A stretch of DNA of 64,000 nucleotides, from the NCBI GenBank assembly GCA_050951325.1, contig JBMNIW010000012.1:735039-799038 (forward strand). Reading direction: 5' to 3'. The DNA comes from Clostridia bacterium. Lineage in GTDB: Bacteria; Bacillota; Clostridia; UBA1212; DUPL01. Shown one piece after another: positions 4,213 to 63,984 of this stretch. Position numbers and translations under genes: made by a program. Positions within the stretch are counted from its first letter, which is position 1. Every line of letters starts with the position of its first letter. The notes beneath the pieces were generated by a model. It was not told the DNA's origin. It worked only from the letters and a program-made list of their open reading frames with translations, and did no database searches.

Positions 4213-5358
4213 ATGAAGAGGCTTATATTAAGTCTTTTGGTTTTATGTATGCTTCTATCATGTACAGGTCTCTTCGTTTATGCTGAAGAGAACGAGTTCG
4301 TGAGAAAAGATAATTTAGCTAGAATGGAAGGATGTACATACAGCTGGTCGGGCACTTGGCAACATAACGGAGTAGACTCAGAGGCAGGAGATCCGGGTCA
4401 TAAGTGCTTTGATGGCAATGTGGATTCGAAATGGGGAAGTGCTGATGTTGCCAATGGAGATCAGTGGGTGTTGGTAAGATTTCCGAATGCAGTGACCGTT
4501 GATGGCTTCAAACTTTGGCAGGACAATGGACCATGGACAAACATTACAGGTTACAAGATTCAAGTGCAGAAAGGTTCCGAAACCTGGGAAGATGTCTATG
4601 ACGTCACCTGAGTTTACTGACAAAGTGGAGAGAACACGAGCATGACTTTTGAAACCCCGATAACAATAACTGCATTCCGTGTTTACCTCCCTGCAGACAA
4701 GGCAGGCGGAAAGTCCGCAGTAGAGCTTACTGAAGTACAGGTCTACAAATATCACAGATTTACTTATGGTAATGGAAATGGAAACACACAGCTGAAATAC
4801 GATGGTGAAACCAAAACGGAATTGTCACTGGATGGTGCTGCTACAGATGCTTCATCAACAAATAATCCATCCTCCAATGCGATTGATGGCAGCAACAACA
4901 CCAAGTGGTCCTCCGTAGGCAACAGCGTACCACAGTGGATTCAGGTTATTCTGCCAGAGGTTAAAAACCTTTCCGGATTCAGATTGGTTGCTGATTTCAA
5001 CTGGACGGATATCCGTGCTTACCATGTTGAAGTTGCTACAAAAGATGGATGGGTAAAGGTCTACGAGCATTCTGGTGAAAGCATTGAGCACTTCCAGGAG
5101 ATTGACTTCGATACATTGTGGAATATAGATTCAATTCGTTTCACCATAACTGAAGTTGGTCCGGATGCACTTCAGGGACATGGAACAACTTCCATAGATA
5201 TTTTGGAAATCAAACTATTCACAGCAGATGCTATCGAACAAGAAACAGAGCCTGAAACAAACCCACAAACAAGCGACATGTCCATAATCTTCATCCTTGG
5301 AATGACTGCAGTTTTGGGCTTGAGCTTGTTTAAGAGAAGAATGACAGTGAACGCATAA
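4213..5358 (+). CDS. Cell-surface protein with two F5/8 type C (discoidin/CBM32-like) domains and NPQTSD sorting signal; interrupted at 4600-4650
   Basis: Signal peptide MKRLILSLL..VYA. Motifs FDGNVDSKW..DQWVLV and AIDGSNNTKW..PQWIQV. C-terminal NPQTSD, hydrophobic stretch, KRR. ORFs 4153-4611 and 4642-5358 are in the same frame and join after removing three single bases. Confidence 0.75.
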
Positions 5359-5375
5359 GTTCATATTGAACTTTG

Positions 5376-5403
5376 AAGAACCGAAGGGAAGCCTTCGGTT
5401 CTT
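5376..5403. terminator. Bidirectional rho-independent terminator
   Basis: 12-bp perfect stem AAGAACCGAAGG-GAAG-CCTTCGGTTCTT between convergent genes. Confidence 0.8.
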
Positions 5404-6506: not shown

Positions 6507-8477
6507 TCATCTGTTGCACCATACAGGTGTATTGTTTCTGTCGTAGGTAATTTCCTGCAGGTTGTGATTATCCACGTTGATCCAGGTAAAGTAGTTGCTA
6601 TTGTTTTTGCCAAGATGGGCAAAATCAACAAGTGTCACTTCCTTTCCGATGGTGGAAAGCGTTTTAATATATACAAAACCTTTGTCTGTATTTATTTTTG
6701 CGTTCTTTAGATTTCCGTAATCGAGTTTTATGGTATTTCTTATATCATCGTTTTCTTCCACGCCAAGAAGCAATGGACCATAATATATTGATGATCTGTT
6801 CCTCATTGTCGAGTTTTTCTCTGCAACCCAAAAATGTAGTGACATGTCAAGTTCAATCTCTATACTGTCACCTTTTTCCCACTTTCTTGTTATAGCATGG
6901 TAGGTGCCTGCATTTACATTCTCCAAAGGTTTGCCATTAAGCTTTATTTTCGATTTTTCAGACCAAACCGGGATTCTTAAGTGGAGAGAGAATTCCTCTT
7001 CTTGTTCAGGCTCAACAATGATTTTTATATAGCCATCCTTTGGATAAACGGTCTGTTGATTTAATTTAATTCTGTTGCCGTAATTTGTAAAGGTTTCAAG
7101 CTTGCTCTCTCCGTAATAGTTGAGATAAAGTCCTGTTGCATCTGTCAGGATCGCCCATTCGGTTATTGATGCCAATCCTTTTGTACCGCTTGCCTGGCAG
7201 CAGGACATGTCTCTGGCACCAGCATACGAGTGGCCTTCAAGGGTTATTGTGGCAAGGTCGCGTTGTCCATTGGAGTAATTGGCATAGGAAAAGACCCTGT
7301 TGTCTTTATAAAGGCTTCCCAATATGGCATTGAAAAAGGACATTTCAAGTTCATCTGCCACATATGAGTTTTTTGATACTTTAAGGTACTCTGTGGAGAA
7401 TACAGCCCATGCAACAGTATTGCATGTTTCACTCATGTCACCATATGGGTTTGCATTGGCGCCTTCACCGGTACCAAAACTGCCTATATTATGTCTGTCA
7501 TAACCAGCCATACCCCACCAAAGAGAATCCAGTGCCTTGAGATAAGTCTCGTCACCCGTTGCCTTGTATAGAGGACCGAGGGTGCTGAGAGTATAAAGGC
7601 TTTCCCATCTTGTCTGGTTGGACCTGCCAAAGACAACCCCTTCCAAAGCGGAATTCAGCCAATCCGCACTTAGTATTCTTTTTGTATAGAAATCCAGGTA
7701 TTCGTTTTTCCACTCGGTGTTTACCATGTATTCCGCTGCCTTAAGATATTTGTTCTTGCCTGTCACGTCATACATGAGAGCAAACATATGACTGATTGCA
7801 AAATTGCATTCTCCCCATTTCTGGGATGCAAAGGACTGCTTGTTGGTTATGAAGTGGTCTATTATGCAGTCCAATGCTTTTTCAGCAATTTCAAGAGCAT
7901 CTTCATTACCGGTAACCTGATACCACCTGTAGAGGCCATGGATGCAGTGGTAATGTCCCCAGGTGTCCCATTTGCCCCAGGGTCCTTCAGTTGCGCTTCG
8001 CGAGTCATTGTTGAATTTTGCTTCTTCAGGCCAGGGACCAAGATATCCATCCTCTCTCTGAGCCTGCTTGAAGTATTCAACAAACCTGTTTCCAACTTCA
8101 TATATTCTTCTGTCTTTGGAGGTTAGATACATTTGTGCAATGCCTGAAAGTATTTTTCCAGGGAACTCTCCATGCCACATTGCCTTTCTAATATCAGGAT
8201 TGGATGGATTCAGGAAACCATCAAACAGACCCGGGTTGTCTTCCAGAACCCTAGTTACCCATGCTTCGGTATGAGCTTCGAATATCTCACCCACCTGTCC
8301 TGAAATATTCATGTTAACCAGATAGTTTGCAAGGCTTCCCTCCCTGCTTTTATCGATTGCTGTTGTCTTTAAATATTGAGGCATTTTCTCAAGCTCCTTA
8401 TCGTTATTCTTAACACAGCCCGTGTTGACACAGAAGGCTATCAATATTGGGAATACCCAAAGCTTATACTTTTTCAT
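6507..8477 (-). CDS. Lipoprotein beta-L-arabinofuranosidase-like cysteine glycosidase (GH127/GH146)
   Basis: Lipobox-like NTGC. HGEFPGK, DGYLGP, SETCNT and SCCQ (Glu/Cys3-Zn signature). C-terminal beta-sandwich TVYP..LRIPVWS..YGPLLL. Confidence 0.85.
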   Translation of the reverse strand: MKKYKLWVFPILIAFCVNTGCVKNNDKELEKMPQYLKTTAIDKSREGSLANYLVNMNISGQVGEIFEAHTEAWVTRVLEDNPGLFDGFLNPSNPDIRKAMWHGEFPGKILSGIAQMYLTSKDRRIYEVGNRFVEYFKQAQREDGYLGPWPEEAKFNNDSRSATEGPWGKWDTWGHYHCIHGLYRWYQVTGNEDALEIAEKALDCIIDHFITNKQSFASQKWGECNFAISHMFALMYDVTGKNKYLKAAEYMVNTEWKNEYLDFYTKRILSADWLNSALEGVVFGRSNQTRWESLYTLSTLGPLYKATGDETYLKALDSLWWGMAGYDRHNIGSFGTGEGANANPYGDMSETCNTVAWAVFSTEYLKVSKNSYVADELEMSFFNAILGSLYKDNRVFSYANYSNGQRDLATITLEGHSYAGARDMSCCQASGTKGLASITEWAILTDATGLYLNYYGESKLETFTNYGNRIKLNQQTVYPKDGYIKIIVEPEQEEEFSLHLRIPVWSEKSKIKLNGKPLENVNAGTYHAITRKWEKGDSIEIELDMSLHFWVAEKNSTMRNRSSIYYGPLLLGVEENDDIRNTIKLDYGNLKNAKINTDKGFVYIKTLSTIGKEVTLVDFAHLGKNNSNYFTWINVDNHNLQEITYDRNNTPVWCNR

Positions 8478-9774
8478 GTTGTCTCCTCTTTGCAAAGATT
8501 ATTATGGCAAGCAAAACCAGAATGGCAATTGCCGCAAGTATTACATATGCAAATATACCGCTGTTCTTGTCACTTGTTTCCGGATTTTCCGTATAGGATG
8601 CAGTTTCCGTAGGTTGTGGAGTTTTCGTGGTGACAGGAGTAGGTGTTTCTTCTTTTGGAGTCGGGTTTTTCTGGACTATGAAGCAGTCAAAAAACGAATC
8701 ATTGTCATAGTATGCCTTGCCATCCGGCTTTACATTGTCTTCTCCTGTTGTGTAGGCGGTTTCCAAAGAAATCGTCACTGTATGATTCCCCGGTTTCAAA
8801 TCATCTTTAATAAGGAATATTTTGCTTTGATATACGGTATCTGACACTTTTATTTTGTCGGTGTGAGGTGTGAATTCCCCTATAATCTCACCGTCCACGT
8901 CAACAACAACCTTGGCTGCATAATAGCATTCTCCAAAGACAACTGCAAGATATGTGCCCTCGAAATCACATGTAAGCGTGGCACTAACCTGTCCCAGATT
9001 GAATCTGTATTCGCGGTTGTTTGCCAAATGATTTGCATAAGGCAAATCAAATGGCCAGGTGTATATTATGTCTTCGTTGTTACTGTATATTGCCTTGTAG
9101 CCAAGTTTGCCCAAAACTTCATCAGTGTATCCTTTAATGGATGCTCCCAAAACAATTTCTTCTGGTTCCTCTTCTTTTACTTCCGTTTCCGTGTCTCTTA
9201 CGATAATAAAATCAAAGTATGCATCATTGTCATAATATGCGTTGCCGTCTTCTTTAACATTTTCCTCCCCGGATACATAAGCTTTCTCGTGCTTTATGAG
9301 CAAGGTATGGTTTGTGTTTTCAAGACTGTCGTTTACATAAATTATCTTGCTTTCTCCCGGAATAACAGCAAGGTTTTTATCATTTGCAAACGGTGTATGC
9401 TCTGCAACCAATACATCATCTATGTAGATTAATATCTTGGCGGCATGATATGTTTCACAAAATGCCACTGCTATGTAATTGCCAGCAAAATCATAAGATA
9501 TTGTACTGCCTACCTGTCCTGCATTGTGAAGGACGTTGCCGCCATATGCCTTGTCGTTTTCAACCTTCCAGTTCAGGTTGTATGCCCAAGTATATGAAAT
9601 ATCACGGCTTTCATTGTCAACAATTTTGCACCCTTTTGATTTAATAAGATTTTCATCAATTTCCGTTGCTTTTGTGCCCGTCGTGACAGGTGGATTGTCC
9701 TGTGCACTCGTATTAAAAGGGACAAGTGATACGAAAATGATTGTTGCCAGTATCAAGTTCATTATTCTTCTCAT
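8464..9774 (-). CDS. Surface protein with two tandem ~150-aa beta-sandwich repeats, PT linker, NPETSD and TM tail
   Basis: RBS GGAGG, signal peptide. Repeat motif N.GQV..T...DF.G.Y.AV.F.E.Y.AAK and GE.NVK.DG.AYYDND..FD..IV occurs twice. Confidence 0.75.
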   Translation of the reverse strand: MRRIMNLILATIIFVSLVPFNTSAQDNPPVTTGTKATEIDENLIKSKGCKIVDNESRDISYTWAYNLNWKVENDKAYGGNVLHNAGQVGSTISYDFAGNYIAVAFCETYHAAKILIYIDDVLVAEHTPFANDKNLAVIPGESKIIYVNDSLENTNHTLLIKHEKAYVSGEENVKEDGNAYYDNDAYFDFIIVRDTETEVKEEEPEEIVLGASIKGYTDEVLGKLGYKAIYSNNEDIIYTWPFDLPYANHLANNREYRFNLGQVSATLTCDFEGTYLAVVFGECYYAAKVVVDVDGEIIGEFTPHTDKIKVSDTVYQSKIFLIKDDLKPGNHTVTISLETAYTTGEDNVKPDGKAYYDNDSFFDCFIVQKNPTPKEETPTPVTTKTPQPTETASYTENPETSDKNSGIFAYVILAAIAILVLLAIIIFAKRRQHEKV

Positions 9775-9982
9775 AACTGATTCCTCCATATTTTTTATGC
9801 TTACCTAAATTTTAATAAATTTAATAATGAGTGATAATAGCATGACTTGGCTCAAACACTTGCATTTGTTAAGAATAGATAAAAAATCTGAATTGTATAT
9901 GGATTTGTACATAATGAACTGGAATAATACTTTTAAATTTATAGAATTATACTATCTGTTAGTCAGAATGGAGAGTGATATT

Positions 9983-14102: not shown

Positions 14103-14933
14103 ATGAACATGAAACTGAGAACTCTTATTGTCTTTACAGTTGTTGCCATAATGTGTCTTTCAATGATAATGGCATCAGCGCAAACAAAAGGTTATGTAAC
14201 CGAGGGTCTTGTTGGTTTCTTTGATGGAAGCAACAATCTGGGAAACAAGCATGACAAGGAAAGTACAACATGGAAGGACTTGAGCGGATCCGGAAATGAC
14301 ATAACTGTAATATTGAATGAAAAATGCAAGTGGAACGACAATGGGTATTTCAATGATAGTACCAAGGTTTATCTGCCTCAATCCCTGACAGATTTAATTA
14401 ACAGCAACGAGTTTACAGTGGAGATTGTATTGAACAATTTTACAGCCAAAGGTTATGAATTTAATACAATTATGAACTGCGACAATGACAATTTCTCGTT
14501 GTTCCGCAGAGTTGCAAACAATGTCATGGAGTTCAAGAACAACACAAATGCAAGACCAGTATCTCTAGGCGGAACAGGACTTGACTATCTTGCCTCGAGA
14601 GTAACATTGACAATCACATACAAGGTGGGCGGCAAGTCAACCATGTACATCAATGGTGAGTTGATAGATTCCAAGAATGCAGTAAATGCAATTGGCGCCA
14701 ATAAAATGTTTTTTGGACATGACAATTCCACAAGAAATTTCAGTGCTGATTATGAGTACATAAGATTCTACAACAGGGAATTGTCAGCTGAAGAGGTTTC
14801 AAAGAATTATAGCGAAGACTTGAAGGCTGCAAATCCTACCACTGGTGTTGCTGCATCATTCTTCTACATGGCAATAACGTTTGGCCTTGCTGGCGCTGCA
14901 TACAAGGGTATGAAGAAGAGAGCAAGGATATGA
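14103..14933 (+). CDS. Surface LamG/concanavalin-A-like jelly-roll protein with NPTTG sorting signal
   Basis: RBS AGGAGG, signal peptide. YVTEGLV..FDG, TWKDLSGSGND, FTVE, MYINGE, IRFYNRELSAEEV. Ends ANPTTG, TM, KKR. Confidence 0.8.
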   Translation: MNMKLRTLIVFTVVAIMCLSMIMASAQTKGYVTEGLVGFFDGSNNLGNKHDKESTTWKDLSGSGNDITVILNEKCKWNDNGYFNDSTKVYLPQSLTDLINSNEFTVEIVLNNFTAKGYEFNTIMNCDNDNFSLFRRVANNVMEFKNNTNARPVSLGGTGLDYLASRVTLTITYKVGGKSTMYINGELIDSKNAVNAIGANKMFFGHDNSTRNFSADYEYIRFYNRELSAEEVSKNYSEDLKAANPTTGVAASFFYMAITFGLAGAAYKGMKKRARI

Positions 14934-14960
14934 GAATATCAAAATCTTTATAGCTCGAAA

Positions 14961-16098: not shown

Positions 16099-18620
16099 AT
16101 GAAAAGAAAACTATCTACTGTTACTATCAAATTTGTGGGTGTGGGTGATTATGATATCAATGGGAACAAACGGAAGTCAATTAAGCGCAAGCAGGAACGG
16201 AGAAACCTCCTGGGTCAAGATTCCTTATACTCGCAAAGGAAGAAGTTGATTGGCGACTATTTGTACCTTGTGGGCGGTTACCACTCCATAGACAGCGGAT
16301 GCCCGCCATGGGGAACGGCCAATTATGCCTGATATGAGGTTCATAGGGGATGAAATGGGAACCCTCCAGCATTGAGTACACAGATGGCGATGCAGTGAAG
16401 AGGTACCCTCTGGTGTTTGGCTACACCATGTGGTTCAGGCAGCACTTTGCAGAAGGTGGAGCTCCTTTCAAAACCGACGAGGCTGTAGACGGGATGAAGC
16501 AGCTTTTGGATAAAACCCTTCATCTTTATGGTGGATTTGAAGCTGCGGAAAAGTGTGTTGTAAAGATTAAAATCCAAGACAAGCCAATTAAGTCAATTAA
16601 AATTGTAGACAACAGAGGGAAGGCGGGAAATCCTGTATTTGACGGTGCTTATATTGTAAGAGGGGATTTCAAAGGCACCCTTAGTGGAGGAGCATTCTCT
16701 TTTGAGGCAGGAGATGCATTCTTTGACAAACATGTGGTTGATTCCAAGAATCCTTATCCGAATGAAATCAAAGAAGCATTGGATGAGATAAACAAATTTC
16801 TTTTAACTTATGAGTATGAATACGAGAACCCTCCTGTATACAAGTATCCTTCATCATATAAAGGTGTTAAATTCAGATTTACAGGCAACAATCTAGCTGA
16901 TATAGCTACGGGAGTGGTTGCTGAAAATCTATTCAGCCTTATGGGTCGTGTGGATGATGATGGAATGATGCACACTTCATACAAGGATGCACCATCCTGG
17001 AGGTATGACGGTTTTGGAACCTGGGTACCAAATGCAAATTCATACTACAGTGATTTTTACTCACGAGATGGCGGAAGGGCAATAATGACTTTAAACTCAT
17101 ATGGGTATCCAGGCCTTGGAGAAAAAAGTGTCATATTTGCCAATAAAGAAATGATGTACTTCAGAGAAAAAGGATTGACCTTAAATGGAGTGCAGATTCC
17201 AGGCCATTATACGGTTATTGTGAACAAGCCGCTTGTATACTCGACATTCCTGACCGAAGTGGCAGGCTGGTTTACCAGATATACAAAACAGGCATTTGGC
17301 GATGAGTATCAGAACATGGGAAATCAGGAGACTGACGGTCACGGACTTATGATGATTGCCAACTATAACATATGGAGAAATCTTGGCATGGATAAGAAAT
17401 GGGTGGAGGATAACTGGAGAGAACTCAAGGAAGCGGCAGACTTTATTCTTTGGTGCTTTGAACATCCAAGGCTTTCCTTTGCAGCAAACGGACTTCTCTA
17501 TGCAGAGTCTGAAGGTGGTATGAACGCATACACCCTTTACTGCAACGTTCCTTGCTACCTGGGTCTCATCAGCTATGCTGAAATGGCAAGAGCAGCAGGT
17601 AATGTAGAGGACGCAGAAAAATGGGAAGAATGCGCAGAGACTATTCGAAAAGCTATTAGTGAAAGACTGGCAAAAGGAAACAGATGGAGTCAGGATATAT
17701 TTGGATTTTTCCATGACCCAGTGATTACAATGATGTCTGACATATTTGGCTACGACTTGAATGACATGCCTGAAGACTGGGTGGAGAATTCGAGAAACGC
17801 CTATGAGTTGGATGTTAGGAGGATTAGAAACCAGGGTCACTTCGGACCTTCTGGAATAGGATACGATCACTCAATGATAACACAGAACGCATTGCTTCTT
17901 GACATGATGGATGATGCAAACAAACTGGTAAGCAATCTGACCAAACTGAGCTATGCGCCTGGATTGCCTGAGCCTTACCTGGTACCTGAAGGAATCACTG
18001 TTGATGTGGAAAAAGGCATCATCAGACGTCAGGGAGACCTCGGAAACCTTGTACAGCTTGCAGAGGCATTGAAGTGTTACCACATTGTTTCTGGAGTGTC
18101 ACCTGTAAACAACGGCAAACTGAAGATAATGCCAAGACTTCCAGATGAATGGAATGTGGAAATTACGGACTTCGATCTTCAGAATGCAGATGGCACACTG
18201 GGTATGTACATAACATCACCAAAGAACGGAACACAAACTGCTCAGATTAAGCTGCAGAAAGTGGATCTGGAAAGTGTAGCTCTCAGACTTGGGCCATTTC
18301 CCGCAGATACAAAGAATGTAATGGCAAGACTTAATGGGCAGGATGTTGAATGCAGGATTGTGGAATCTGGAGACAGGAAATGGGCGTGGGTAGAGGTGCC
18401 ATCAGATTCCATCGAGGATGTTGAAGTTGCTGTAATTTACTCTTCAACAGACGACATGCCTGAATGGCCTGAAATGCCAAGTTGGGAGCTTCCAAAGAAG
18501 AATGAATCAAGCCCGTCTGGCGCAAGCATCAACCAAATATTAATTGGTGTTGTCTCCATACTGGCTTTGGTATTTGCTGGTGTATTGATATTTGATAAGA
18601 GGAGAAGAAAGTCAGAATAA
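16099..18620 (+). CDS. Putative (alpha/alpha)6 glycosidase, paralog 2; N-terminus broken by several single-base insertions
   Basis: RBS AAGGA and ATG 16099. DYLYLVGGYHSIDSG..WGTANY and (other frame) DMRFIGDEMG align with paralog 1. Main ORF 16350-18620 shares all core motifs. Ends in TM plus KRRRK. Confidence 0.65.
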
Positions 18621-18633: not shown

Positions 18634-19755
18634 ATGCGCAAACTGTTATTAATGACTTTGGCTTTAATTATTTGCTTTTCGCTTTCTGTAGGAGCAAAAA
18701 CAGTAATTTTTGAAGATGATTTTGACGAAGGACAGCTTGGAGATTTTCCGCTATACTTCAACATATTTGCAAGTAGTGCTGAAAACTTTGAAGATGAAGG
18801 AGATAACGGATACTTCGTTGGTAAATGGATTACTGGTGCATATGCAATATACAATGATGAAATTGAAGATTACACCATAACTGTGGATTTCAAGATGCCC
18901 CATGGAATAAATCCAGCAGTAAACTACAAAAGAGCAGCTATAATGTTGAGGTCGTCTTATGAGAGTAATGACAAATCGCTGGAACCTGACAATGGCGATC
19001 CGGATAATTCATCATACCTTGGCGCTTCTGGCATATACTTCTACTGCTACGGCACAACACTGGAAGTAGGGGTACACACGAAGAAGAATGGTGGAACTAC
19101 TGGTCCTGTAAATGGAACTTCGGAACATGCGGTAAAGAAAGAAGTTCCTGATAGCACTAAGAGGCTTCTTGGATCGTACACTGTTAGCTATTTGATTGAT
19201 CTTCCTGAGGGAAAGACTTTTGATGATTTTCTTACTGTAAAGGTAGTGGATGAGAAAGAGAAGATTTCCTTCTATGCGGAAGATGAACTCATTTGCTTCC
19301 TTGAGTTGTCAGATATTGGAGATGTGACCACGGTTATTGGTGAAGGATACTTCAAGGAACATGAGGAGGGTATGCCGGTTTTTGACGAACCTTCCTACCA
19401 GACAGTGGTGCTGAAGGATGCGGAAGGAAACGAACTTATTAAAGTTGAAGAGGCTGTTGTTTCTACCGTAGGGTACCTGGGATTTGCCAGCAGGGGATGC
19501 GGTTACATGATTGACAATCTGAAAATTGAGCTTAACAAGGATGTAACACCTGAACCTACAAAAGAGCCAACACCTACTCCTGACAAAACTCCGGCTGAAA
19601 CTGAAAAATCTTCCACAACGTCTACGCCGTCTAAAAAGGATGAAGGCGAGACGAAAGATGGCCTTCAAGCGGATGCTCTTACATACGTGTTAATAGCGCT
19701 GGCTGTAGTTATTTTGGGCGGAATAGTGTTTGTGCTGTTTAGGAAAAAGAAATAG
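18634..19755 (+). CDS. Non-catalytic-looking surface jelly-roll protein (family A) with PT linker and C-terminal TM
   Basis: Signal peptide. IFEDDF, SGIYF, KDAEGNEL, GFASR..IDNL. Linker TPEPTKEPTPTP, then TM plus RKKK. Confidence 0.7.
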   Translation: MRKLLLMTLALIICFSLSVGAKTVIFEDDFDEGQLGDFPLYFNIFASSAENFEDEGDNGYFVGKWITGAYAIYNDEIEDYTITVDFKMPHGINPAVNYKRAAIMLRSSYESNDKSLEPDNGDPDNSSYLGASGIYFYCYGTTLEVGVHTKKNGGTTGPVNGTSEHAVKKEVPDSTKRLLGSYTVSYLIDLPEGKTFDDFLTVKVVDEKEKISFYAEDELICFLELSDIGDVTTVIGEGYFKEHEEGMPVFDEPSYQTVVLKDAEGNELIKVEEAVVSTVGYLGFASRGCGYMIDNLKIELNKDVTPEPTKEPTPTPDKTPAETEKSSTTSTPSKKDEGETKDGLQADALTYVLIALAVVILGGIVFVLFRKKK

Positions 19756-35684: not shown

Positions 35685-35760
35685 CTATGCAGACGTAATT
35701 AAACTTTGACACAGGATTTGGCTCTCTGTATAATCATGTTTAGGAGAAGGGGTGTGCAAT

Positions 35761-39230: not shown

Positions 39231-39259
39231 TAAAGACATGGGCAGAGCCCATGCCTTTA
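39231..39259. terminator. Bidirectional terminator
   Basis: TAAAGACATGGGC-AGA-GCCCATGCCTTTA between convergent genes. Confidence 0.65.
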
Positions 39260-45068: not shown

Positions 45069-45806
45069 ATGAAGAAAACAGTATTATTAATTATGATTTT
45101 GTCTCTTGTATTTGTAATCGTTGCATGTACAGGCGGAGACAAGGATGAAGATCCAACACCAACCGCAACACCAACACCGGAGGTAACCCAGGAGCCTACT
45201 GAAGAGCCGGATCCAACAGAGGAACCAACTCCAGCTCCTACTAGACAGCCAGATCCTGAGGTTGACGGTATAATATTCCACTTCTTCTACGACTATGATT
45301 ATGGTCACGAAGTACTCCAAGACACTCAGCAAGTTGACACTGAGTGGGTGGAAGGAAAGGGACTTGCAATCTCACCAGTAAGTGATGATCCATGGGTGAT
45401 GATTACAGCAATCGGCCCTAATGACGAGGAAGTTAATATCATGGAATACCCTGTATTAAAGATGAGGGTTTTGAATCAGACTCCAAGCAACCTGTTTGAA
45501 GCTTTTGTGGGAAGAACAACCATCATAACTGGTGATGACCTGTTCCAAAGTACAATAGAGCCAAATGGAACTGATTTTGTTGACATCATCATTGACTTGG
45601 CGGCGTTAAAGGGAGAGGACTTCTTGGCTGTAAACAATGGCACACTGGCATGTGTCAGATTGGACATAGTAAACCTTACACCATGGAAGGATCAAATTGA
45701 GGAAAAAGCCGGTGACGGAACATATATGATTTATCTTGATTATTTCGGTTTCTTCAAGACAGTGGAAGATGCTCAGAATTGGGTTCCATCCCACCTTTCA
45801 GAATAA
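45069..45806 (+). CDS. Lipoprotein with PT linker and beta-sandwich module (family B)
   Basis: RBS GGAGG, lipobox IVAC. DDPWV, YPVLKMRV, IIIDL, VRLDI, YLDYFGFFKTVEDA. Confidence 0.7.
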   Translation: MKKTVLLIMILSLVFVIVACTGGDKDEDPTPTATPTPEVTQEPTEEPDPTEEPTPAPTRQPDPEVDGIIFHFFYDYDYGHEVLQDTQQVDTEWVEGKGLAISPVSDDPWVMITAIGPNDEEVNIMEYPVLKMRVLNQTPSNLFEAFVGRTTIITGDDLFQSTIEPNGTDFVDIIIDLAALKGEDFLAVNNGTLACVRLDIVNLTPWKDQIEEKAGDGTYMIYLDYFGFFKTVEDAQNWVPSHLSE

Positions 45807-45853: not shown

Positions 45854-45959
45854 ATGTCAAAAATATTAAGATACATATATATAATCGACAATATTATTAA
45901 GGAAAACTTGAATAATATGTAGTTTAATTAATTTGCAGGCATATCTTAAAGGAGTAAAT

Positions 45960-48119
45960 ATGAAAGCGGATATAGAAAAGTTGAACAAGGCAAGAAAAAA
46001 AGCAAAGGAGCTTCTTGCCAAAATGAATATAAATGAAAAAGTAGGGCAGTTGTCCCAGTTTGGCAGATCCATTTATGGCGGCGTTGAAAGCTATTATGAA
46101 GACCATTACAAGGAAGGCAAAATCGGCTCGTATTTGGGAGTGACAGGAGCCAATAAGACGAATATGGTACAGAAAAATCTGATGAGCGAGACTCCGCACA
46201 ACATACCAGCAATTTTTGCATATGATGTCATACACGGATACAAGACAACCTTTCCTACACCTCTTACCCAATCCTTTTCATGGGATACAAATGTGGTAAG
46301 AGAATGTGCGTCCGTTTCTGCAAAGGAAGCTTATGCTGCAGGTGTCAAGTGGACTTTTGCACCCATGGTAGACATTGCAAGGGACCCTCGCTGGGGAAGA
46401 ATCATGGAAGGTTACGGCGAAGACCCTTATCTGTGTTCGGAGATGGCAAAGGCTGCCGTTGAAGGATACCAGGGAGATTTTATAGGGCAAAAGGACAAGG
46501 TGATTGCATGCGCCAAGCATTTTGTTACATACGGTGCATGTATTGGAGGCAGAGACTACAACAGTGCAGACATGTCTTTACAGACCCTGCATGATGTATA
46601 TATTCCACCATTTAAGGCAGCCTTTGATGCGGGTGCTGCCACCTGCATGGCTGCTTTTAACGATTTTAACGGTGTTCCGTGCACATGCAACAAGTATCTT
46701 TTAAAAGATGTTTTACGCAAACAATTGGGTTTTGATGGAGTTGTAATAAGTGATGCGGGAGCTGTTGTGGAGCTGATACCGCACAATGTGTGCGACAATG
46801 TTAAGGATGCGGTTGACCTTGCGTTCAATGCAGGGATCGACATTATTATGGCGTTTGATCCTTTCAATGACAATATTCCTGAATTGGTTGAAGAAGGAAG
46901 GATAAATATTGAGGATGTGGATAAGGCTGTTGAAAGAGTCCTTGTAATCAAAGAACTGCTTGGACTTTTTGATGATCCGTTTGTGGAGGAGGAAGGAGAA
47001 CAGTGCTTCTTTTCACCAGAGCACAGAGCTGTTGCAAGAGATAGTGCAAGACGTTCAGTGGTTCTCTTAAAGAATGAGGAAAAGGTTCTTCCAATTGAAA
47101 AAGGCGCAAAAATAGCGTTAATTGGGCCTCTTGCAGAAAACAAGGCGGATGTGCTGGGTTCCTGGGCTGGTTTGTGCGAGCCAGAAAAGACAATTACTGT
47201 TATGGAAGGAATTGCTGGTGCGTATGGATGGGAAAAGGTCTTCTATGCAAAAGGCTGCGATATTGATAGCAGCGACAAATCAGGATTTGATGAAGCATTG
47301 CATATTGCCAAGCAGGCAGATGTGGTGATTCTTGCTGTTGGAGAATCAAGGGACATGTCCGGTGAGGCCTGCTGCAGATCCGACTTGAGGCTGCCTGGTG
47401 TACAGGAGGAACTTATATCTAAAATTGCGGAAACAGGAAAACCCATATGTGCTATTGTTTTTGCAGGAAGACCGATCGTAATGGAAAGTTGGAAGGATTC
47501 TGTAAAGTCAATACTCTTTGCAGGACAGACGGGTACAGAAACCGGTAATGCAGTAGCAGATATTATATCCGGAGAGTACAATCCGTCCGGAAGATTGACA
47601 TGCACATTCCCGTATAGCGTTGGACAGATACCAATATATTATAGTGCATTGAATACAGGCCGCCCTGCGCTTGGTAAAATACGTTTTGAAGCAAAATACA
47701 TGGATGCACCTATTGAGCCAGCATATTGTTTTGGTTATGGTTTAAGTTATACCGAGTTTGAATATTCAAATCTTAAGTTGTCCAAAAAAGAGATTAACAA
47801 GGATGAATTTCTGGATATTAGTGTGAATGTCAAGAATATTGGGGAATTTGACGGAGAGGAAGTTGTTCAGCTTTATGTTCGGGATCTGATCGGAACTAGT
47901 GCAAGACCCATGAAGGAGCTGAAAGGTTTTAAGAAGGTCTTTGTTAAAAAAGGCGAAACAGTAAAGGTTGAATTCAGGCTTCACGCATTAAGTCTGGCTT
48001 TTCATAATTTTGATATGGAATATGTAATTGAACCTGGAGAGTTCAAAATAATGATAGGAAAAAGCTCACAGGATATTGTGCTTGAAGATAATTTTTATGT
48101 GAAGGAAGGGATAATATGA
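45960..48119 (+). CDS. bglX: GH3 beta-glucosidase (BglX-like), cytoplasmic
   Basis: DVIHG, RDPRWGR..EGYGEDPYL, KHF, VISD nucleophile, SGEA, C-terminal Fn3-like EVVQLY..ELKGF. Confidence 0.88.
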   Translation: MKADIEKLNKARKKAKELLAKMNINEKVGQLSQFGRSIYGGVESYYEDHYKEGKIGSYLGVTGANKTNMVQKNLMSETPHNIPAIFAYDVIHGYKTTFPTPLTQSFSWDTNVVRECASVSAKEAYAAGVKWTFAPMVDIARDPRWGRIMEGYGEDPYLCSEMAKAAVEGYQGDFIGQKDKVIACAKHFVTYGACIGGRDYNSADMSLQTLHDVYIPPFKAAFDAGAATCMAAFNDFNGVPCTCNKYLLKDVLRKQLGFDGVVISDAGAVVELIPHNVCDNVKDAVDLAFNAGIDIIMAFDPFNDNIPELVEEGRINIEDVDKAVERVLVIKELLGLFDDPFVEEEGEQCFFSPEHRAVARDSARRSVVLLKNEEKVLPIEKGAKIALIGPLAENKADVLGSWAGLCEPEKTITVMEGIAGAYGWEKVFYAKGCDIDSSDKSGFDEALHIAKQADVVILAVGESRDMSGEACCRSDLRLPGVQEELISKIAETGKPICAIVFAGRPIVMESWKDSVKSILFAGQTGTETGNAVADIISGEYNPSGRLTCTFPYSVGQIPIYYSALNTGRPALGKIRFEAKYMDAPIEPAYCFGYGLSYTEFEYSNLKLSKKEINKDEFLDISVNVKNIGEFDGEEVVQLYVRDLIGTSARPMKELKGFKKVFVKKGETVKVEFRLHALSLAFHNFDMEYVIEPGEFKIMIGKSSQDIVLEDNFYVKEGII

Positions 48120-49693
48120 GAAAATTTGTATCACTATTACTGGTATTTGCGTTTGTTGCGATAATGTCAAATCCATTTGTATTAAATGCTAAAACCAATG
48201 TAGTCAAGATACTGTCATTTTCAGAGGACTTTGACGGAATTGATAATGTGGAAGGTTTGAAAGAGTACTGGAATGTGATTGATCCTTTGAATGGCAATGT
48301 ACATCAGTTGGTCGAAGAAGAAGGGAACAATGTTCTTCACATGTCCAAGTTCAGCGGACTTATGTGGAAGGAAGCTTTGGGAAGGTATGAGTTTTCTGCA
48401 GACATGAAGATTGATCCTATCAACGACAAGTCAACCCATGGTACCGGTACAGCTTTGCTTGTTCGTGTCAATCGTGAGAACATGGCAGGAAAACCTGTAT
48501 ACGAATCATATCCTGAAGAAGGAAGACAGCTTGGTACATCTGGTATCGTAATATATCTGTGGCAGAACAATATAAATATTACTGTAAGAACGTTTGATGA
48601 GGAAACCAATACTGTCGGTCCGGTAGTCAACTTTGGAAACATGCGTCTTCCTAATGGGAAAGATGCAAGGAATGATTTTGTTAATGTAAAGGTAGCGGAT
48701 GACGGAAAGGGAGTTATTAAGATTTATCTTGACGACATTCTTTATGTTACATTTACTTTGTCTGAGGAAAAGGAGCTGTCAGACGGTACAAGAACAGCAG
48801 TATTCTATACCAGACTGAAAGCTGAGTTTTCTCCTGACATAAACTTCTGGGACAACAAAAACGTAACGGAAGTTAACAATGCGTTTGTTTCTGCTTCAAA
48901 TGGTACAATTTCTTATGCCACAAGGAATTTTGGTGGTTATGTCGGACATTATGTGGATAACATTAAAATGGACATATTTACAGAGTTTGAGGGCAACACG
49001 GATGCAGACCCTGTTACCTGGGTGGACTACTCAGATGTTGACAATGTAAAACTAAAATACATTGAAGGCAAAGACATGGAAGCAGTTAACGGTGGTGCAA
49101 AAATTAATGCTGAAAAAGGCGGATTTTTGTATCTGCGTTTCCCTGATGAGATTGTAACTGATGCAGACAATGACTATTACCTTGTGATTAAATACAAGTA
49201 TGGTGAAAATGCTGAGACGGACAAATTCTTTGGAGGTCTTATCCTCACTTCTTCTGCTGAAAGAGAAGATTATGCTTCAATAAATTCCGGAGGAATGCGC
49301 TATCTGCAAGCCTTAGGTCAAACTGTTAATCATACCAACATAGTTGCCGGAGACGATGGCTACTATTACCTTCTGGCACGCATTTCATACAACAAGGACA
49401 AACTCAGCTCACTTCCTGACAACCATGCCAAAGTAAAGTTTGTGAGAATTGAACTTAATGATGAGGCGGACAAAGTAGACGAACTTGTTATAGGCGGAGC
49501 GGCCATATACAAGGATGAGTTTGGTTTTGCAGACAACTACCAGCTTGCTCCTTTCATACCTCATGCGGTTCCTGAAGGAGGTACTAACGAGGAAACACCA
49601 AATCCCCCAACTGGCGATGCCGGACTATTAATCACAGCACTGCTTCTGTCATCAGTGGTTTTGTTAAGGAAAAGGTTTTTTATAGTTGAATAG
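48116..49693 (+). CDS. Two-domain surface protein (family A jelly-roll plus second beta-sandwich) with NPPTG sorting signal
   Basis: Overlaps GH3 stop. Signal peptide. FSEDF, GTSGI, VKVADDG, YATR..VDNI. Ends NPPTGD, TM, RKR. Confidence 0.7.
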   Translation: MRKFVSLLLVFAFVAIMSNPFVLNAKTNVVKILSFSEDFDGIDNVEGLKEYWNVIDPLNGNVHQLVEEEGNNVLHMSKFSGLMWKEALGRYEFSADMKIDPINDKSTHGTGTALLVRVNRENMAGKPVYESYPEEGRQLGTSGIVIYLWQNNINITVRTFDEETNTVGPVVNFGNMRLPNGKDARNDFVNVKVADDGKGVIKIYLDDILYVTFTLSEEKELSDGTRTAVFYTRLKAEFSPDINFWDNKNVTEVNNAFVSASNGTISYATRNFGGYVGHYVDNIKMDIFTEFEGNTDADPVTWVDYSDVDNVKLKYIEGKDMEAVNGGAKINAEKGGFLYLRFPDEIVTDADNDYYLVIKYKYGENAETDKFFGGLILTSSAEREDYASINSGGMRYLQALGQTVNHTNIVAGDDGYYYLLARISYNKDKLSSLPDNHAKVKFVRIELNDEADKVDELVIGGAAIYKDEFGFADNYQLAPFIPHAVPEGGTNEETPNPPTGDAGLLITALLLSSVVLLRKRFFIVE

Positions 49694-56073: not shown

Positions 56074-56089
56074 GGAAGGAGAAGATGTT

Positions 56090-60286: not shown

Positions 60287-61138
60287 ATGCTTAGAAAAAC
60301 AATTATATGTGTATTACTAATGTTGATGGTGTTTTCTTTGTCATTCTCACACGCCGAAGAGTCATATGTAGTATATGACTTTACTGAACCCGAGTACAAC
60401 TGGGCCGGTGAAAATGAGAATCTTGACTATTTTGCATATGACGATGATGAACTTGCGTACATGGGCAAATTGTATAATGTCAATTGGGCCAGACGCTATG
60501 GAGGTGTATCCATACAAGGCAACGAACTGGATCTGGATGTATCATCTACACAGAAAAGATTTTTAAAAATGATGGTCAGGGTGGATGAGGTTGGAGCTCA
60601 AAATGCCTTTGACAATTTTACTGCATATTACTGGTATGATGAGGATCCAAAAGATCCTAACTCTGCACATTATGTTGATCTTCCTAAGGATTGTGCAACA
60701 GCTATTTCCGGTGCCGAGGAATACATTACCCTGATATTTGATTTGGGTTGGGAAAACGAAACGGTGGAAAAAGTTACACAGTTCAGATTAGATATATTTA
60801 CTGCTTCCATGGACAAGGCTGCTGTTCAAACCGACGGTGCTCATTGTGGCGAGATTTTTATTAGATACATAGGATTCTTCGATACCATGGAAGATGCTGA
60901 AAACTTCGAGATTGTTCTTCCAACAGAGGTGCCGAAAACTCCTACTCCAGAGCCCAGTGAAACAGAGCAGCCAAAGCAAACTGCAACAACAAAGCCGGTA
61001 ACAACCAGTGGAAAACAGGACAAGGATGACAAGTCTGATATGGAATCCATGGTTGGGATAGTTATTGGTGGTGTTGTGGTATTGGCAGTCGTCGCAATAA
61101 TACTTATTGTTGTACTACCAAAAAGGAGGAAGAGTTAA
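60287..61138 (+). CDS. Surface beta-sandwich protein (family B) with PT linker and C-terminal TM
   Basis: RBS AAGGAG, signal peptide. FLKMMVRV, LIFDL, FRLDI, IRYIGFFDTMEDA. TM plus KRRK. Confidence 0.7.
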   Translation: MLRKTIICVLLMLMVFSLSFSHAEESYVVYDFTEPEYNWAGENENLDYFAYDDDELAYMGKLYNVNWARRYGGVSIQGNELDLDVSSTQKRFLKMMVRVDEVGAQNAFDNFTAYYWYDEDPKDPNSAHYVDLPKDCATAISGAEEYITLIFDLGWENETVEKVTQFRLDIFTASMDKAAVQTDGAHCGEIFIRYIGFFDTMEDAENFEIVLPTEVPKTPTPEPSETEQPKQTATTKPVTTSGKQDKDDKSDMESMVGIVIGGVVVLAVVAIILIVVLPKRRKS

Positions 61139-63984
61139 TGAGCAGATCTCAATTCATAGCAATTGTCGCAGTCATATTGATTGCTGGTTTGCTCATAAGT
61201 GGAGTTTTGGTATATATGAACATTATCAAACAGAAGAGTGAGAAAGTGGAGTTTTTACATAATACGGATGAAAAAACCGTATACTACAAAGGTTTTGGTT
61301 ACAGCATCGAAATTAATTATGACGGGAAGTTTCAAGTTAGCAGGTTAATAGCCAAAGAACATAACATCCTTGCTCCTGGCAGGGGTATTTATCTGTCGTA
61401 TGAAACAAAGGACCACTCCTTTTCAAGTCTTAATCTCGATGCCGACCCCGGCATCGAGATTGAAGAGATAGACGAGGAGAACTATGCTGCAGTTTTGAAT
61501 TTTGAAGAGGAGAACACTCAGTACGAAGTTCGTCTAGATTTTACTCCTTATGAAACCAAAGCAACTATTAAGAGAACCATAAAAAACGAAATTAGCATAA
61601 CACACCAGGGATTTCCTTCAATCAACCTTGAACAGGATGCGGTTGAAAATATTAGATGGCATCGATCAGGTTCAAACTTCTGGATAGCAGGCAAAGCGTC
61701 CAATATGAGAAACTTTCTGTCTGCTGGAGCTGGATACCTTGCTGAAAAAGGTGAAGCAGGATTTGAGCGTGGCAATGTACACAGAGGAGTTGAAGATATC
61801 ACTTTCAGTCTGATTTCATCTCCTGATAAAAAGTATGCCTTCAGATTTGATGGTAGTACAGACAGGGATTACGCTACCTGTGTAAGAAGGTATGAAGACG
61901 GCGAGTTTAAACATCTTGAGATGAATGTCACTATTGCAGCACCTGACAAAGAGCTTAGGTACCTGGGTCATGAAGATGGCTGGGGTTCTTATTCGGGCAG
62001 GACTGTGGCTCAGGATGCAAAGATTTACAGGCCGGTAAAAATGCTTGGTGGGCAGGTTGATGTTGTGGAGTTTTTCATAAGGCCTGCAGACTATAACCAA
62101 TATTTTGAACTGGGTAAACTGAAAGGCTTTGATCAGGAGCTTTTATCATACGCACTTAACAACTATGGAAGGCTTATGATTATGGACCATGACATGGGTA
62201 CTGCGGTTGAGTCTCCAAACCACTTCCTTGAATTACCTGCCTTGGAACAGCATTGGAATACCTGCATTGTTGGTTTGTTTATGGATGATGCTGCACTGGA
62301 ATCTCAGAAGAACGGTTTAAAAGTAATTAGAGACAAACTTCAAGCACTGGATGGACATATTACAAGTCCGTACCCCTGGATTACACATGACAACTGGGGC
62401 AGCAAGTACAGTGATATGATGCCTGGTTATGTTTTGGCCAATATTTATCTGTATAACCTGACAGGCGACAAGGAATTCTTCGACTCAATGGTTGAATCCT
62501 GCATCAAGGCGTTGGAGAGCCAGGAAAAAATGTACCTGGACGGAAAGGTATGGCTGTGTAAAAATCTTGTAACTGAAAACGAACTGAACATGAATGATTA
62601 CTGGGAGCACACAGCCGGCATGTACAATGGATATACCTCAGCCATGTATTATGAAACACTAGTAAAATTCTCAACCCTTTTGGAGGCTTTATATGGAAAC
62701 CAGTATGCAGATTTAGTAAATCATTATCTGAATTTGGCTGAAAAGATTAAAGAAGACTTTAACAGACTCATGTGGAGCGACAATACAAATACCTTTCTTT
62801 ATGGTTCTGATAACCTTGACATACTGTATTTGCCAGTCCAGGGAGCTGCCATAAGAGGCGGAATTGTAGACAAGGATAGAATCAAACTCATGGTAGAGTC
62901 GGTTGAAAGATATACAGCGGTATTTGATTTGCCCTTCCATGTAATGAATGTCCTGGACATACTGAATGAAAACAGACCGGCTGACCAGTCCGATGACTAC
63001 AACAAATCCATGCTAGGCATGAATGGGGGATGGTATGGAGCGCCAGACGGTGATTTCTATTCGGGTTTCCCGATTTACGGCGACAGATCCCTAATTCCAA
63101 GATATATTAACAGGTTTACTGAACTGTTTGAGAAGACTGGATTTGTAGGTGCTACCGCATACAAGAGGGATGGAGTAACACCTGCAGACTATGGATGGTA
63201 TGACAGTATGCCCACCCTGGTACATCCGATATGGGGATTGTACACTTACGGATACGGATTCCAGCCACTGCATGACAGGCTGAATATAGCACCATTCATT
63301 CACGAAAGCATGGCGGGTAGTGTTGTTAAATACCGTTTTAGACAAGTGGATATGGAAATTACCTACAAGTCCCTTTATGAGTTTGAGCTGGTTGCAATGG
63401 ATGATCCTAAAACTCCGATATACTTCCAGTTCATCAACCAGACTCCAAACAAGGAGTATGAAGTTGTGATAAACGGTAAAACACAAAAATATACTGCGGA
63501 TGCAGAGGGTACGGTATCAGTTCAGGTGGAAGGCAGAAAGACTAGTGTAAAGCTGGTTGCTCCTGATGATGAAGAGATGAATATCACCAGCTTGAAAGGC
63601 AAACCTGTTATAGTCTCTTCAACAAAAAATGGTGATAGGGCTACAACCCACTGGTCAACATGTCTTACTGATGGAGAGCATGACCTGTATTGGGTACCTA
63701 GAGCTGATGATGAAAAACCACATGCAATAGTAGCTCTGGGTGGAAAAGCAAAACTATCCACTATCGTTATCCGTTTGAAAGAAGAAGCTGGCTTGAAGTA
63801 CTTCATAGAAGGTACGAACGATCCAAAGTTAAAGGATTGGAAGGTGATTGTGGACAACTCGAAGAAAGCAACAAGTGGCACAACACTGGAACATGACTTG
63901 AAAGGCGCATACCATTACATCCGAATAAGGTTTGTGGATGCTTATCCGGAGGATATCATGATAACTGAGATTGAAACAAGGTAG
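61138..63984 (+). CDS. N-anchored putative six-hairpin glycosidase with C-terminal F5/8-type module
   Basis: N-terminal TM. YLYNLTGDKEF, NDYWE..NGYTSAMYY, LAEKIKEDFNRLMW, NGGWY. C-terminal LTDG..YW..YHYIRI..ITEIE. Confidence 0.6.
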   Translation: MSRSQFIAIVAVILIAGLLISGVLVYMNIIKQKSEKVEFLHNTDEKTVYYKGFGYSIEINYDGKFQVSRLIAKEHNILAPGRGIYLSYETKDHSFSSLNLDADPGIEIEEIDEENYAAVLNFEEENTQYEVRLDFTPYETKATIKRTIKNEISITHQGFPSINLEQDAVENIRWHRSGSNFWIAGKASNMRNFLSAGAGYLAEKGEAGFERGNVHRGVEDITFSLISSPDKKYAFRFDGSTDRDYATCVRRYEDGEFKHLEMNVTIAAPDKELRYLGHEDGWGSYSGRTVAQDAKIYRPVKMLGGQVDVVEFFIRPADYNQYFELGKLKGFDQELLSYALNNYGRLMIMDHDMGTAVESPNHFLELPALEQHWNTCIVGLFMDDAALESQKNGLKVIRDKLQALDGHITSPYPWITHDNWGSKYSDMMPGYVLANIYLYNLTGDKEFFDSMVESCIKALESQEKMYLDGKVWLCKNLVTENELNMNDYWEHTAGMYNGYTSAMYYETLVKFSTLLEALYGNQYADLVNHYLNLAEKIKEDFNRLMWSDNTNTFLYGSDNLDILYLPVQGAAIRGGIVDKDRIKLMVESVERYTAVFDLPFHVMNVLDILNENRPADQSDDYNKSMLGMNGGWYGAPDGDFYSGFPIYGDRSLIPRYINRFTELFEKTGFVGATAYKRDGVTPADYGWYDSMPTLVHPIWGLYTYGYGFQPLHDRLNIAPFIHESMAGSVVKYRFRQVDMEITYKSLYEFELVAMDDPKTPIYFQFINQTPNKEYEVVINGKTQKYTADAEGTVSVQVEGRKTSVKLVAPDDEEMNITSLKGKPVIVSSTKNGDRATTHWSTCLTDGEHDLYWVPRADDEKPHAIVALGGKAKLSTIVIRLKEEAGLKYFIEGTNDPKLKDWKVIVDNSKKATSGTTLEHDLKGAYHYIRIRFVDAYPEDIMITEIETR

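Follow-up and report, generated by a model that had tools for sequence, protein, structure and literature searches.

Predicted surface-tethered proteins with lectin- or carbohydrate-binding-module-like folds beside glycosidase-like genes in a Clostridia bacterium

We analysed a 64,000-nucleotide (nt) stretch of DNA from a Clostridia bacterium (G000:C12:735039-799038, here called the window), in which ten genes for small exported proteins, the modules, lie among genes resembling those of glycosidases. The genome is 3.08 Mb in 12 contigs and 96% complete, and the nearest named relatives of the organism's enzymes belong to Oscillospiraceae and to metagenome-assembled genomes (MAGs) of Clostridiales. 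An earlier note, made from the sequence alone, had read the region as a candidate glycan-capture system of enzymes paired with non-catalytic surface modules on interchangeable anchors. As a discrete system of 60 kb this did not hold: the arrangement is instead a genome-wide habit, involving some 127 small tethered proteins together with about 51 enzymes of a family related to glycoside hydrolase (GH) family 99, and it is common to related families of the order. We propose, with a probability of roughly 60%, that the small proteins are carbohydrate-binding modules (CBMs) in trans, tethered separately beside surface glycosidases and putatively holding glycan for these enzymes.

Module genes, families and tethers

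The window has 54 listed open reading frames (ORFs) of at least 150 amino acids (aa). Pfam was run on 41 that do not overlap; 25 have a family at E<=1e-3 and 16 do not. The ten module genes (Table 1), named here by their first coordinate, are all present, nine of them as open frames, and a heuristic found a signal-like N-terminal segment in all ten. Two reach a Pfam cut-off (4213 and 14103), both in non-catalytic families, and seven have no match; relaxing the threshold to E<=10 brought only compositional matches for seven modules. A weak match to CE2_N in 8464 scores 20 bits against a cut-off of 27.9, and NCBIfam gave nothing above cut-off for any of the ten. The description of ten exported proteins lacking a catalytic motif agrees with these searches, in which no catalytic family was found, except that 4213 is interrupted.

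The two F5_F8_type_C domains of 4213 score 32.5 and 45.9 bits against a cut-off of 28.2 (PF00754 or PF22633). The gene is split into two pieces, 4153-4611 and 4642-5358, by in-frame TGA codons at 4609-4611 and 4618-4620, and the roughly 33 nt between the pieces make sense only in the +1 frame; the pair of stops together with the frame change points to a pseudogene or an assembly error. The domain of 14103 matches Laminin_G_3 above cut-off (1e-10, 42.4 bits), and this gene is surrounded by insertion-sequence and pseudogene debris. The internal repeats of 8464 are 38% identical (E 2e-34).

Table 1. Features of the window in order of position, followed by cohesin/dockerin ORFs elsewhere in the genome (TM, transmembrane segment; HMM, hidden Markov model)
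Feature	Position	Strand	Description
Module 1 (4213)	4213..5358	+	two F5/8 type C (CBM32-like) domains; NPQTS sortase-type signal
AraC-type regulator	5403-6497		
GH127-family enzyme	6507..8495	-	N-terminal signal, possible lipobox; PF07944 3.8e-40, PF20736 6e-24
Module 2 (8464), family E	8464..9789	-	two jelly-roll-like repeats; 38-aa Pro/Thr stalk, NPETS, TM, KRR tail
Exported enzyme-like protein, 890 aa	9827..12499	+	weakly GH15-/six-hairpin-like; C-terminal TM, KKK tail
Module 3 (14103)	14103..14933	+	LamG/ConA-like domain; NPTTG sortase-type signal; no stalk
GH99-like C-terminal fragments	15084-15512, 15559-15855	+	duplicated, near-identical
Broken paralogue of 9827-12499	16099..18620	+	C-terminal TM anchor; N-terminal piece 16099-16332 in another frame
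Module 4 (18634), family B	18634..19755	+	predicted distant DUF1080-like jelly roll; 36-aa stalk, TM, RKKK tail
Second GH127 copy	21150-23003		no signal peptide
Lipoprotein, 977 aa	25383..28316	+	fused family-D module, residues 176-294
Module 5 (29056), family C	29056..29751	+	lipobox, 50-aa Pro/Thr stalk, predicted beta-sandwich
Propeller lipoprotein	29761..31335	+	weakly GH43/GH130-like, five-bladed; PF04616 8.3e-5 and PF04041 7.5e-4, under cut-off
Module 6 (31468), family B	31468..32403	+	lipobox, 40-aa stalk
GH31 with PA14	32593-35613		by Pfam
GH99-like enzyme	35752..38175	+	fused N-terminal family-C module; C-terminal TM anchor
Module 7 (39257), singleton	39257..40195	-	43-aa stalk, TM, KKN tail
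GH99-like lipoprotein (N-terminal half)	43629..45005	+	hhalign to GH99-like family profile 96.3%, E 2e-9, residues 1-209
Module 8 (45069), family D	45069..45806	+	lipobox, 49-aa stalk, predicted CBM-fold jelly roll
GH3 glycosidase	45933..48119	+	Pfam GH3 N, C and Fn3-like domains; no signal peptide
Module 9 (48116)	48116..49693	+	first domain family B, plus second domain; NPPTG sortase-type signal
Hexuronate operon	50650-57487		GH4, URO-D-like, mannitol-dehydrogenase-family reductase, altronate/galactarate dehydratase, UxaC (E 4e-220)
GH99-like lipoprotein, 635 aa	58219..60126	-	divergent from module 10
Module 10 (60287), family D	60287..61138	+	37-aa stalk, TM, KRRKS tail; in-genome HMM 2.7e-21
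Protein of 948 aa	61138..63984	+	N-terminal membrane anchor; C-terminal F5/8-C-like, PF00754 4e-5, under cut-off
Cohesin/dockerin ORFs outside the window	G000:C3:211101-211735; G000:C12:195698-199300, 632978-634114		

Iterated in-genome HMMs, run on crude in-house gene calls (2725 ORFs of at least 80 aa), define the module families. Family A (F5/8-C) has 18 proteins in the genome, family B 34, family C 29 and family D 26, while 39257, 8464 and the second domain of 48116 are near-singletons. None of ten full-length homologues of 39257 (46-69% identity) has a Pfam family. Membership of 39257 in family D or C found no support, as hhalign aligned only the last strand and the Pro/Thr linker; PDB and profile searches with it matched nothing past the linker. 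No relation to family D was found for the second domain of 48116.

The fold evidence consists of AlphaFold2 (AF2) models for families D and C and of Pfam matches for the F5/8-C and LamG domains. The family D model (45069) has a pLDDT of 94.6, and its top Foldseek matches are CBM86 (E 4.8e-6), CBM29, CBM6, CBM8 and CBM30. VIA gave Z scores of 12.0 to CBM29 (139-143 residues aligned) and 11.9 to CBM86, and also 11.9 to the roseophage baseplate domain 8gtc. Public proteins hold 5014 representative clusters with family D at E<=1e-3 and 849 at <=1e-10, and the top 150 are mostly long multidomain proteins. The family C model (29056, pLDDT 91.7) is a lectin-like jelly roll, for which VIA gave Z 11.2 to the phage phi812 baseplate, 11.0 to the lectin-like domain of Cwp84 and 7-8 to porphyran-, alginate- and BT0996-type CBMs. 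No Pfam model matched families B, C or D at its cut-off, and PDB sequence and profile searches with the three family profiles gave signal or linker matches only. Taken together, the modules appear from models and profiles to be beta-sandwich, lectin- or CBM-like domains of a few families, at least three of which are CBM-like, have no Pfam name and are worth characterising.

The phage and surface-layer resemblances of family C could also fit a different role. Its best structural matches include baseplate and capsid-decoration domains and the surface-layer protein Cwp84, and the families are large and fast-diverging (a word-indexed search gave only 12-14 close homologues), as might be the case if the tethered proteins served cell-cell or biofilm adhesion, wall organisation or as variable decoys against phages, their adjacency to enzymes reflecting shared regulation of surface proteins. 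We consider such a non-nutrient role very unlikely, since the domains share a chain with a glycosidase-like catalytic domain in 29 proteins of more than 550 aa, are enriched about ten-fold beside glycosidase-like genes, and in family D have closest folds that are almost all CBMs.

Each of families A-D occurs in stand-alone proteins on all three types of anchor, a lipobox, a C-terminal TM with a Lys/Arg tail, or a sortase motif of the form NPxT[GS], and the earlier note's view of three anchor types used interchangeably is borne out. Each family is also found inside proteins of more than 550 aa, including GH99-like, GH3-bearing and GH28-bearing ones; in the window family C is fused at the N-terminus of 35752-38175 and family D within 25383-28316. 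Both Lgt and Lsp are encoded in the genome, as is one sortase, of class B (TIGR03064, 165 bits against a cut-off of 153.75). Class B sortases generally act on NPxTx-type motifs. A motif followed by a hydrophobic segment and a basic tail, as in sortase substrates, is present in 4213 (NPQTS), 14103 (NPTTG) and 48116 (NPPTG); 8464 has NPETS directly ahead of its TM and is perhaps a further substrate. A relaxed pattern finds 24 such proteins genome-wide. Among 74 C-anchored proteins we found no conserved motif ahead of the TM, whose uncharged segment is mostly 20-26 residues long. A sorting motif like GlyGly-CTERM or PEP-CTERM was also looked for and not seen, with GG near the TM in only 12 of the 74. 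We read the C-terminal TM as nothing more than a stop-transfer anchor. It is shared by the large enzymes 9827-12499, 16350-18620 and 35752-38175 and is therefore a general device of the cell, not specific to modules.

Among small C-anchored proteins, 39 of 52 have a stalk of at least 15 aa (median 38 aa), and so do 53 of 113 small proteins with a lipobox (median 37 aa). The count is 6 of 14 for proteins with a sortase motif (median 21 aa) and 7 of 27 for large C-anchored ones. From this distribution the stalk may be a spacer through the wall for binders tethered to the membrane, of which wall-linked ones would have no need. A metallo-beta-lactamase-fold protein (23955-25322) is built in a similar way, with a Pro/Thr stalk behind a membrane segment at its N-terminus, so the stalk-and-anchor design also serves a hydrolase that is not a glycosidase.

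Glycosidase-like neighbours

Most of the pairings of modules with enzymes described in the earlier note were recovered, several in reduced form. The gene for 8464 overlaps the start of the GH127 gene, and 45069 begins 63 nt past the GH99-like gene 43629-45005; both pairs stand as described. The propeller gene follows 29056 after 9 nt and precedes 31468 by 132 nt, although its GH43 and GH130 matches are under cut-off. The start of 18634 lies 13 nt past a supposed six-hairpin gene, 16350-18620, but the N-terminus of that enzyme is broken off. The stop of the GH3 gene and the start of 48116 overlap as ATGA, but the GH3 protein has no signal peptide. Finally, 60287 overlaps 61138 by 1 nt, but this partner matches F5/8-C only and its reading as a six-hairpin enzyme found no support.

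Genome-wide, of 127 genes for small tethered or module proteins, 41 have a co-oriented glycosidase-like neighbour within 150 nt, whereas among 107 control genes only 5 do (odds ratio 9.7, p 4e-8). The controls come from eight random 20-kb stretches, where all 141 ORFs were annotated and 8 are glycosidase-like. Co-oriented exported neighbours of at least 500 aa within 150 nt were found for 22 of 80 module-family genes, 161 of 2616 other genes and 42 of 445 other small exported ones. Counted from the enzymes, a co-oriented small tethered neighbour accompanies 19 of 51 GH99-like genes (permutation mean 2.4, maximum 8 in 2000), a fused module is present in 14 of the 51, and one or the other in 29. 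Adjacency is thus above chance across the genome, where the earlier note had allowed that it might be no higher than random. Pfam annotation of 38 further co-oriented neighbours of at least 350 aa identified 16 as glycosidase-like (five GH20, two GH2, two GH78-like, two DUF4838, and GH95, GH28, GH36, GH3 and a pectate-lyase-like fold), one as BNR_4 and five as without a family; the remainder are regulators, oxidoreductases, kinases and housekeeping proteins.

The partner family resembling GH99 is represented in the window by 35752-38175, 58219-60126, the N-terminal half of 43629-45005 and fragments within 15084-15855. An in-genome HMM counts 51-57 copies in the genome, and a separate genome search gave 42 matches. 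A 22-member profile aligns with GH99 endo-alpha-mannosidases in the PDB (4acy, 4ad1) at E 2.5e-8 over about 230 residues, including an N-E-W stretch that is invariant in the profile; the second Glu of the GH99 'EWHE' has no acidic counterpart in the consensus, and the family differs from GH99 enzymes by an extra C-terminal beta-rich domain. PF16317 touches one paralogue (1.6e-6, 27.9 bits against a cut-off of 33) and reaches its cut-off in none of those tested. An Atlas cluster name had pointed to PF16402 (DUF5010), which matches nothing in the genome. Of 30 genomes from the same order, 28 contain the GH99-like family, with at most 33 matches in each, and it occurs at no fewer than 608 loci in GTDB species genomes of Clostridia, Paenibacillus, Planctomycetota, Bacteroidota and others. 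A full-text literature search found no paper on this very large, unnamed family, which is worth characterising.

Two GH99-like proteins of about 1100 aa carry a C-terminal SBP_bac_1 domain (G000:C2:33009-36311 and G000:C7:49924-53304), an unusual fusion of an enzyme with the binding protein of a transporter. A 1011-aa protein, L182 (G000:C8:13941-16976), has SBP_bac_1 at residues 619-900 behind a 600-aa N-terminus and adjoins two genes for permeases of the ATP-binding cassette (ABC) type.

The cassette of enzyme and module recurs in related genomes, as the earlier note had suggested examining. A search of the order's 44 other genomes found no close orthologue of the window's own modules; for 29056 the best match reaches 43% identity. 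Family B is present in 34 of 45 genomes of the order, and when the best locus per genome is taken, 9 of 29 have a GH99-like gene immediately upstream in the same orientation. Stand-alone family C genes elsewhere have a GH99-like gene in the 1.5-kb flank at 7 of 13 loci, and two more matches are fused. The 45069 protein has no relative in a search of genome contigs and a single locus, 100% identical, in a search of metagenome contigs.

These arrangements are compatible with the small proteins being obligate subunits that dock on the adjacent enzyme, giving specificity, stability or position within heteromeric surface complexes. The start/stop overlaps (8464/GH127 and 60287/61138) and the many gaps of -4 to +20 nt between GH99-like and module genes suggest translational coupling, and the cassette is kept across genera. 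We regard this as quite unlikely. Independent tethering fits better with long flexible stalks and with three anchors in the same families; 86 of the 127 modules lack a glycosidase-like neighbour, the overlapped GH3 partner is cytoplasmic by sequence, and no pairing module of the cohesin/dockerin type was found in the window.

The stretch 28900-38200 is present in 20 listed runs from 17 studies (at least 14 DNA and 6 RNA-library runs); they include digester and bioreactor samples, and on this basis the organism, an uncultured Clostridium-type bacterium, is common in anaerobic digesters. In four RNA-library (metatranscriptome) runs, contigs cover 30, 30, 30 and 25 of 30 bins across 28900-48800, and one contig (29051-30737) crosses the junction between module 5 and the propeller gene. 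The highest contig word depth in all four runs is at 31468 (94-111, against <=30 in most other places), which is only a hint, contig depth being a poor measure of expression. The contig over 31468 differs at 21-24 letters and therefore comes from a strain variant. These contigs show presence in RNA libraries and not operon structure.

Proposed role and related systems

We favour CBMs in trans because the families of the stand-alone proteins are the same as those fused as accessory modules in large surface enzymes. The evidence comprises folds and families, anchor signals, fused and separate forms, adjacency, conservation of the cassette and presence in RNA libraries; binding of glycans, exposure at the surface, a stalk that spans the wall and cooperation with the enzymes are what the proposal predicts. 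Some 100-130 small proteins, each with one or two CBM-like beta-sandwich domains, would be exported by Sec and tethered at the surface. The tethers would be interchangeable: an N-terminal lipid, a C-terminal stop-transfer helix with a Lys/Arg tail, or linkage to the wall by the class B sortase through NPxT[GS]. In membrane-tethered versions a Pro/Thr stalk of about 37 residues would take the domain through the wall, most wall-linked versions being made without one. The modules would be co-transcribed with, and displayed beside, surface glycosidases, above all those of the expanded GH99-like family, and by holding polysaccharide at the surface they may make it locally more concentrated for the tethered enzymes. 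Uptake of the products could then fall to a few ABC importers; Pfam matches in the whole genome number 13 for BPD_transp_1 and 9 for SBP_bac_1.

Several points weigh against this proposal. A CBM-like fold is by itself no proof of function. Only about a third of the modules have a glycosidase-like neighbour (41 of 127, leaving 86 without), and in the window three of the ten (4213, 14103 and 39257) have no intact co-oriented enzyme beside them, while the cytoplasmic GH3 and the broken 16350 enzyme cannot partner a module at the surface. The paralogues counted are kin, so that Fisher p-values overstate independence, and Pfam annotation of neighbours covers those of at least 350 aa. Gene, signal-peptide and anchor calls are in-house heuristics rather than SignalP output, and these overlook some anchors, such as those of 14103 and 39257. 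The RNA contigs bridge convergent genes (31476-35619), so carry-over of DNA is possible. Finally, the DUF1080 protein BT2157, to whose family some of the modules are related, hydrolyses 3-keto-trehalose (PMC8121099).

That hydrolase makes the term non-catalytic insecure for 18634, 31468 and 48116, the family B modules. The family B profile aligns with the genome's own DUF1080 domains in hhalign (94.4%, E 8.8e-8, 159 columns), whereas PF06439 itself misses family B in the window (best E 0.19, 12.2 bits, or 12.5 in the genome search, against a cut-off of 26.8); from its sequence, family B appears to be a distant DUF1080 relative that is not a member by the Pfam rule. Pfam and AF2 with Foldseek, which the earlier note had proposed as a check for known catalytic families, gave CBM- or lectin-like models for families D and C and left this kinship for family B. 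If family B, with its roughly 30 paralogues, were made up of hydrolases or lyases of DUF1080 type, the cassette would be a two-enzyme unit in which family B performs the second step, on what the neighbouring GH99-like enzyme releases. Family B is the commonest GH99-like partner, with the enzyme-then-B order kept at the 9 of 29 loci noted above; it has an invariant Arg, Gly and Asp, and in its near-neighbour Atlas cluster 24% of members carry PF06439, which is a lead only. Family B is also, like CBMs, an accessory domain in large enzymes. The known DUF1080 reaction requires a 3-keto sugar made by periplasmic NAD-dependent dehydrogenases, as is generally understood, and we are aware of no source of that kind on the outside of monoderm cells. 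We consider a catalytic family B unlikely, and treat it as the main open rival.

A bolder extension, which seems to us doubtful, would make a GH99-like enzyme followed by a separately tethered DUF1080-like protein an obligate two-component surface machine of this order of Clostridia, the small partner serving as a substrate platform or as a second catalytic step. Together with the fusions of GH99-like and solute-binding domains and the small number of ABC importers, it would be the monoderm equivalent of the Bacteroidota utilisome, with stalks and interchangeable anchors replacing the outer membrane and SusC/D.

The CBMs in trans that we favour resemble the CBMs of carbohydrate-active enzymes, which share the beta-jelly roll fold and are appended to glycosidases, sometimes in several copies; the closest folds are CBM29, CBM86 (Roseburia intestinalis Xyn10A) and CBM32/F5-8C. 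Here, in contrast, many copies are encoded separately, each with a signal peptide, stalk and anchor of its own. In principle they would also work like the surface glycan-binding proteins (SGBPs) of Bacteroidota, the SusE/SusF-like proteins of polysaccharide utilization loci, which are non-catalytic, lipid-tethered beta-sandwich proteins beside glycosidases, thought to keep glycan at the surface. However, neither a SusD family nor a TonB-dependent receptor was found by Pfam in the 41 window ORFs, which have no SusC/SusD pair or TonB-dependent transporter; there is no outer membrane, TM and sortase anchors are used as well, and the island has no transporter.

Cellulosomes and amylosomes differ by their cohesin and dockerin domains, which no window protein has. 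The Pfam search of the 41 ORFs found no cohesin, dockerin, SLH, ABC or phosphotransferase system (PTS) domain, in agreement with the earlier note on the window, including its lack of a sugar ABC or PTS transporter. The statement does not extend to the whole genome, the rest of which has 6 dockerin and 4 cohesin matches in a few long ORFs (Table 1), and no SLH match; a minimal cohesin-dockerin system therefore coexists with the tethered-module design. The Sas proteins of Ruminococcus bromii are said to assemble into amylosomes through cohesin-dockerin contacts.

Stand-alone polysaccharide binders that serve separately encoded enzymes are likewise described on monoderm Clostridia. The tapirins of Caldicellulosiruptor, whose fold is unique, are encoded near a type IV pilus locus (10.1101/359786), and Sas6 and Sas20 of R. 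bromii are non-catalytic binders assembled within amylosomes (10.1101/2022.11.20.514607, PMC9112005). The proteins described here differ by direct lipid, TM or sortase tethering via Pro/Thr stalks, by their number (about 127) and by a GH99-like main partner. With tapirins, Sas6 and Sas20 already known as non-catalytic surface binders of Gram-positive bacteria, the concept is not new. Gram-positive polysaccharide utilization loci (PULs) are defined by a glycosidase, a regulator and a transporter in one cluster. No transporter domain is present in the window; its clustered glycosidase genes and AraC-type regulator are features shared with the Firmicute PULs of Sheridan et al. 2016 (PMC5320581).

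The modules would therefore work like SGBPs, tapirins or Sas proteins, yet they are members of none of those systems, and the whole varies a known strategy on a large scale without amounting to a novel type of machine. It is notable for the unnamed GH99-like family as partner, for its scale (roughly 4-5% of genes) and for interchangeable anchors. If the modules bind glycans, they show how a monoderm with neither cellulosome nor outer membrane keeps polysaccharide and enzymes together, and the design would amount to a modular kit of stand-alone binders with a swappable tether (lipid, helix or wall) and a stalk length fitted to the tether.

Other features of the window

Some of the larger proteins near the modules gave little in profile searches. 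The 890-aa protein 9827-12499 matches TIGR01577 far under cut-off (2.8e-6) and has eight paralogues or fragments in the genome. No Pfam or NCBIfam family was found for 25383-28316, and no NCBIfam or PDB match for 61138-63984; PDB sequence searches with 35752, 58219, 9827 and 61138 gave signal or linker matches only.

The hexuronate operon, which looks complete, points to uronic-acid-rich substrates. Genes of the URO-D/MtaA-like (methyltransferase) type occur among the glycosidase and uronate genes at 38147-39229 and 52029-53078, for which the handling of methylated sugars is one possibility, and a third gene of this kind, with a stronger URO-D match, is found next to a CobW gene (L214:3933-5120).

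A patch of decay extends over 12595-16332, with a truncated UPF0236 transposase (12595-13491), the GH99-like fragments and the detached 16099-16332 piece. Between module 9 and the GH4 gene, an esterase-like gene is present as frameshifted fragments (49800-50502). A metagenome contig (L216:1-5118) agrees with 46095-50726 at 99.8% identity without gaps, so the breaks in the esterase-like gene are not private to this assembly. Near 46095-46127, within the 5' portion of the GH3 gene, the same contig is about 38 bases longer. Finally, a radical SAM/4Fe-4S gene (20072-21172, minus strand) is divergent from the cytoplasmic GH127-like gene at 21150-23003.

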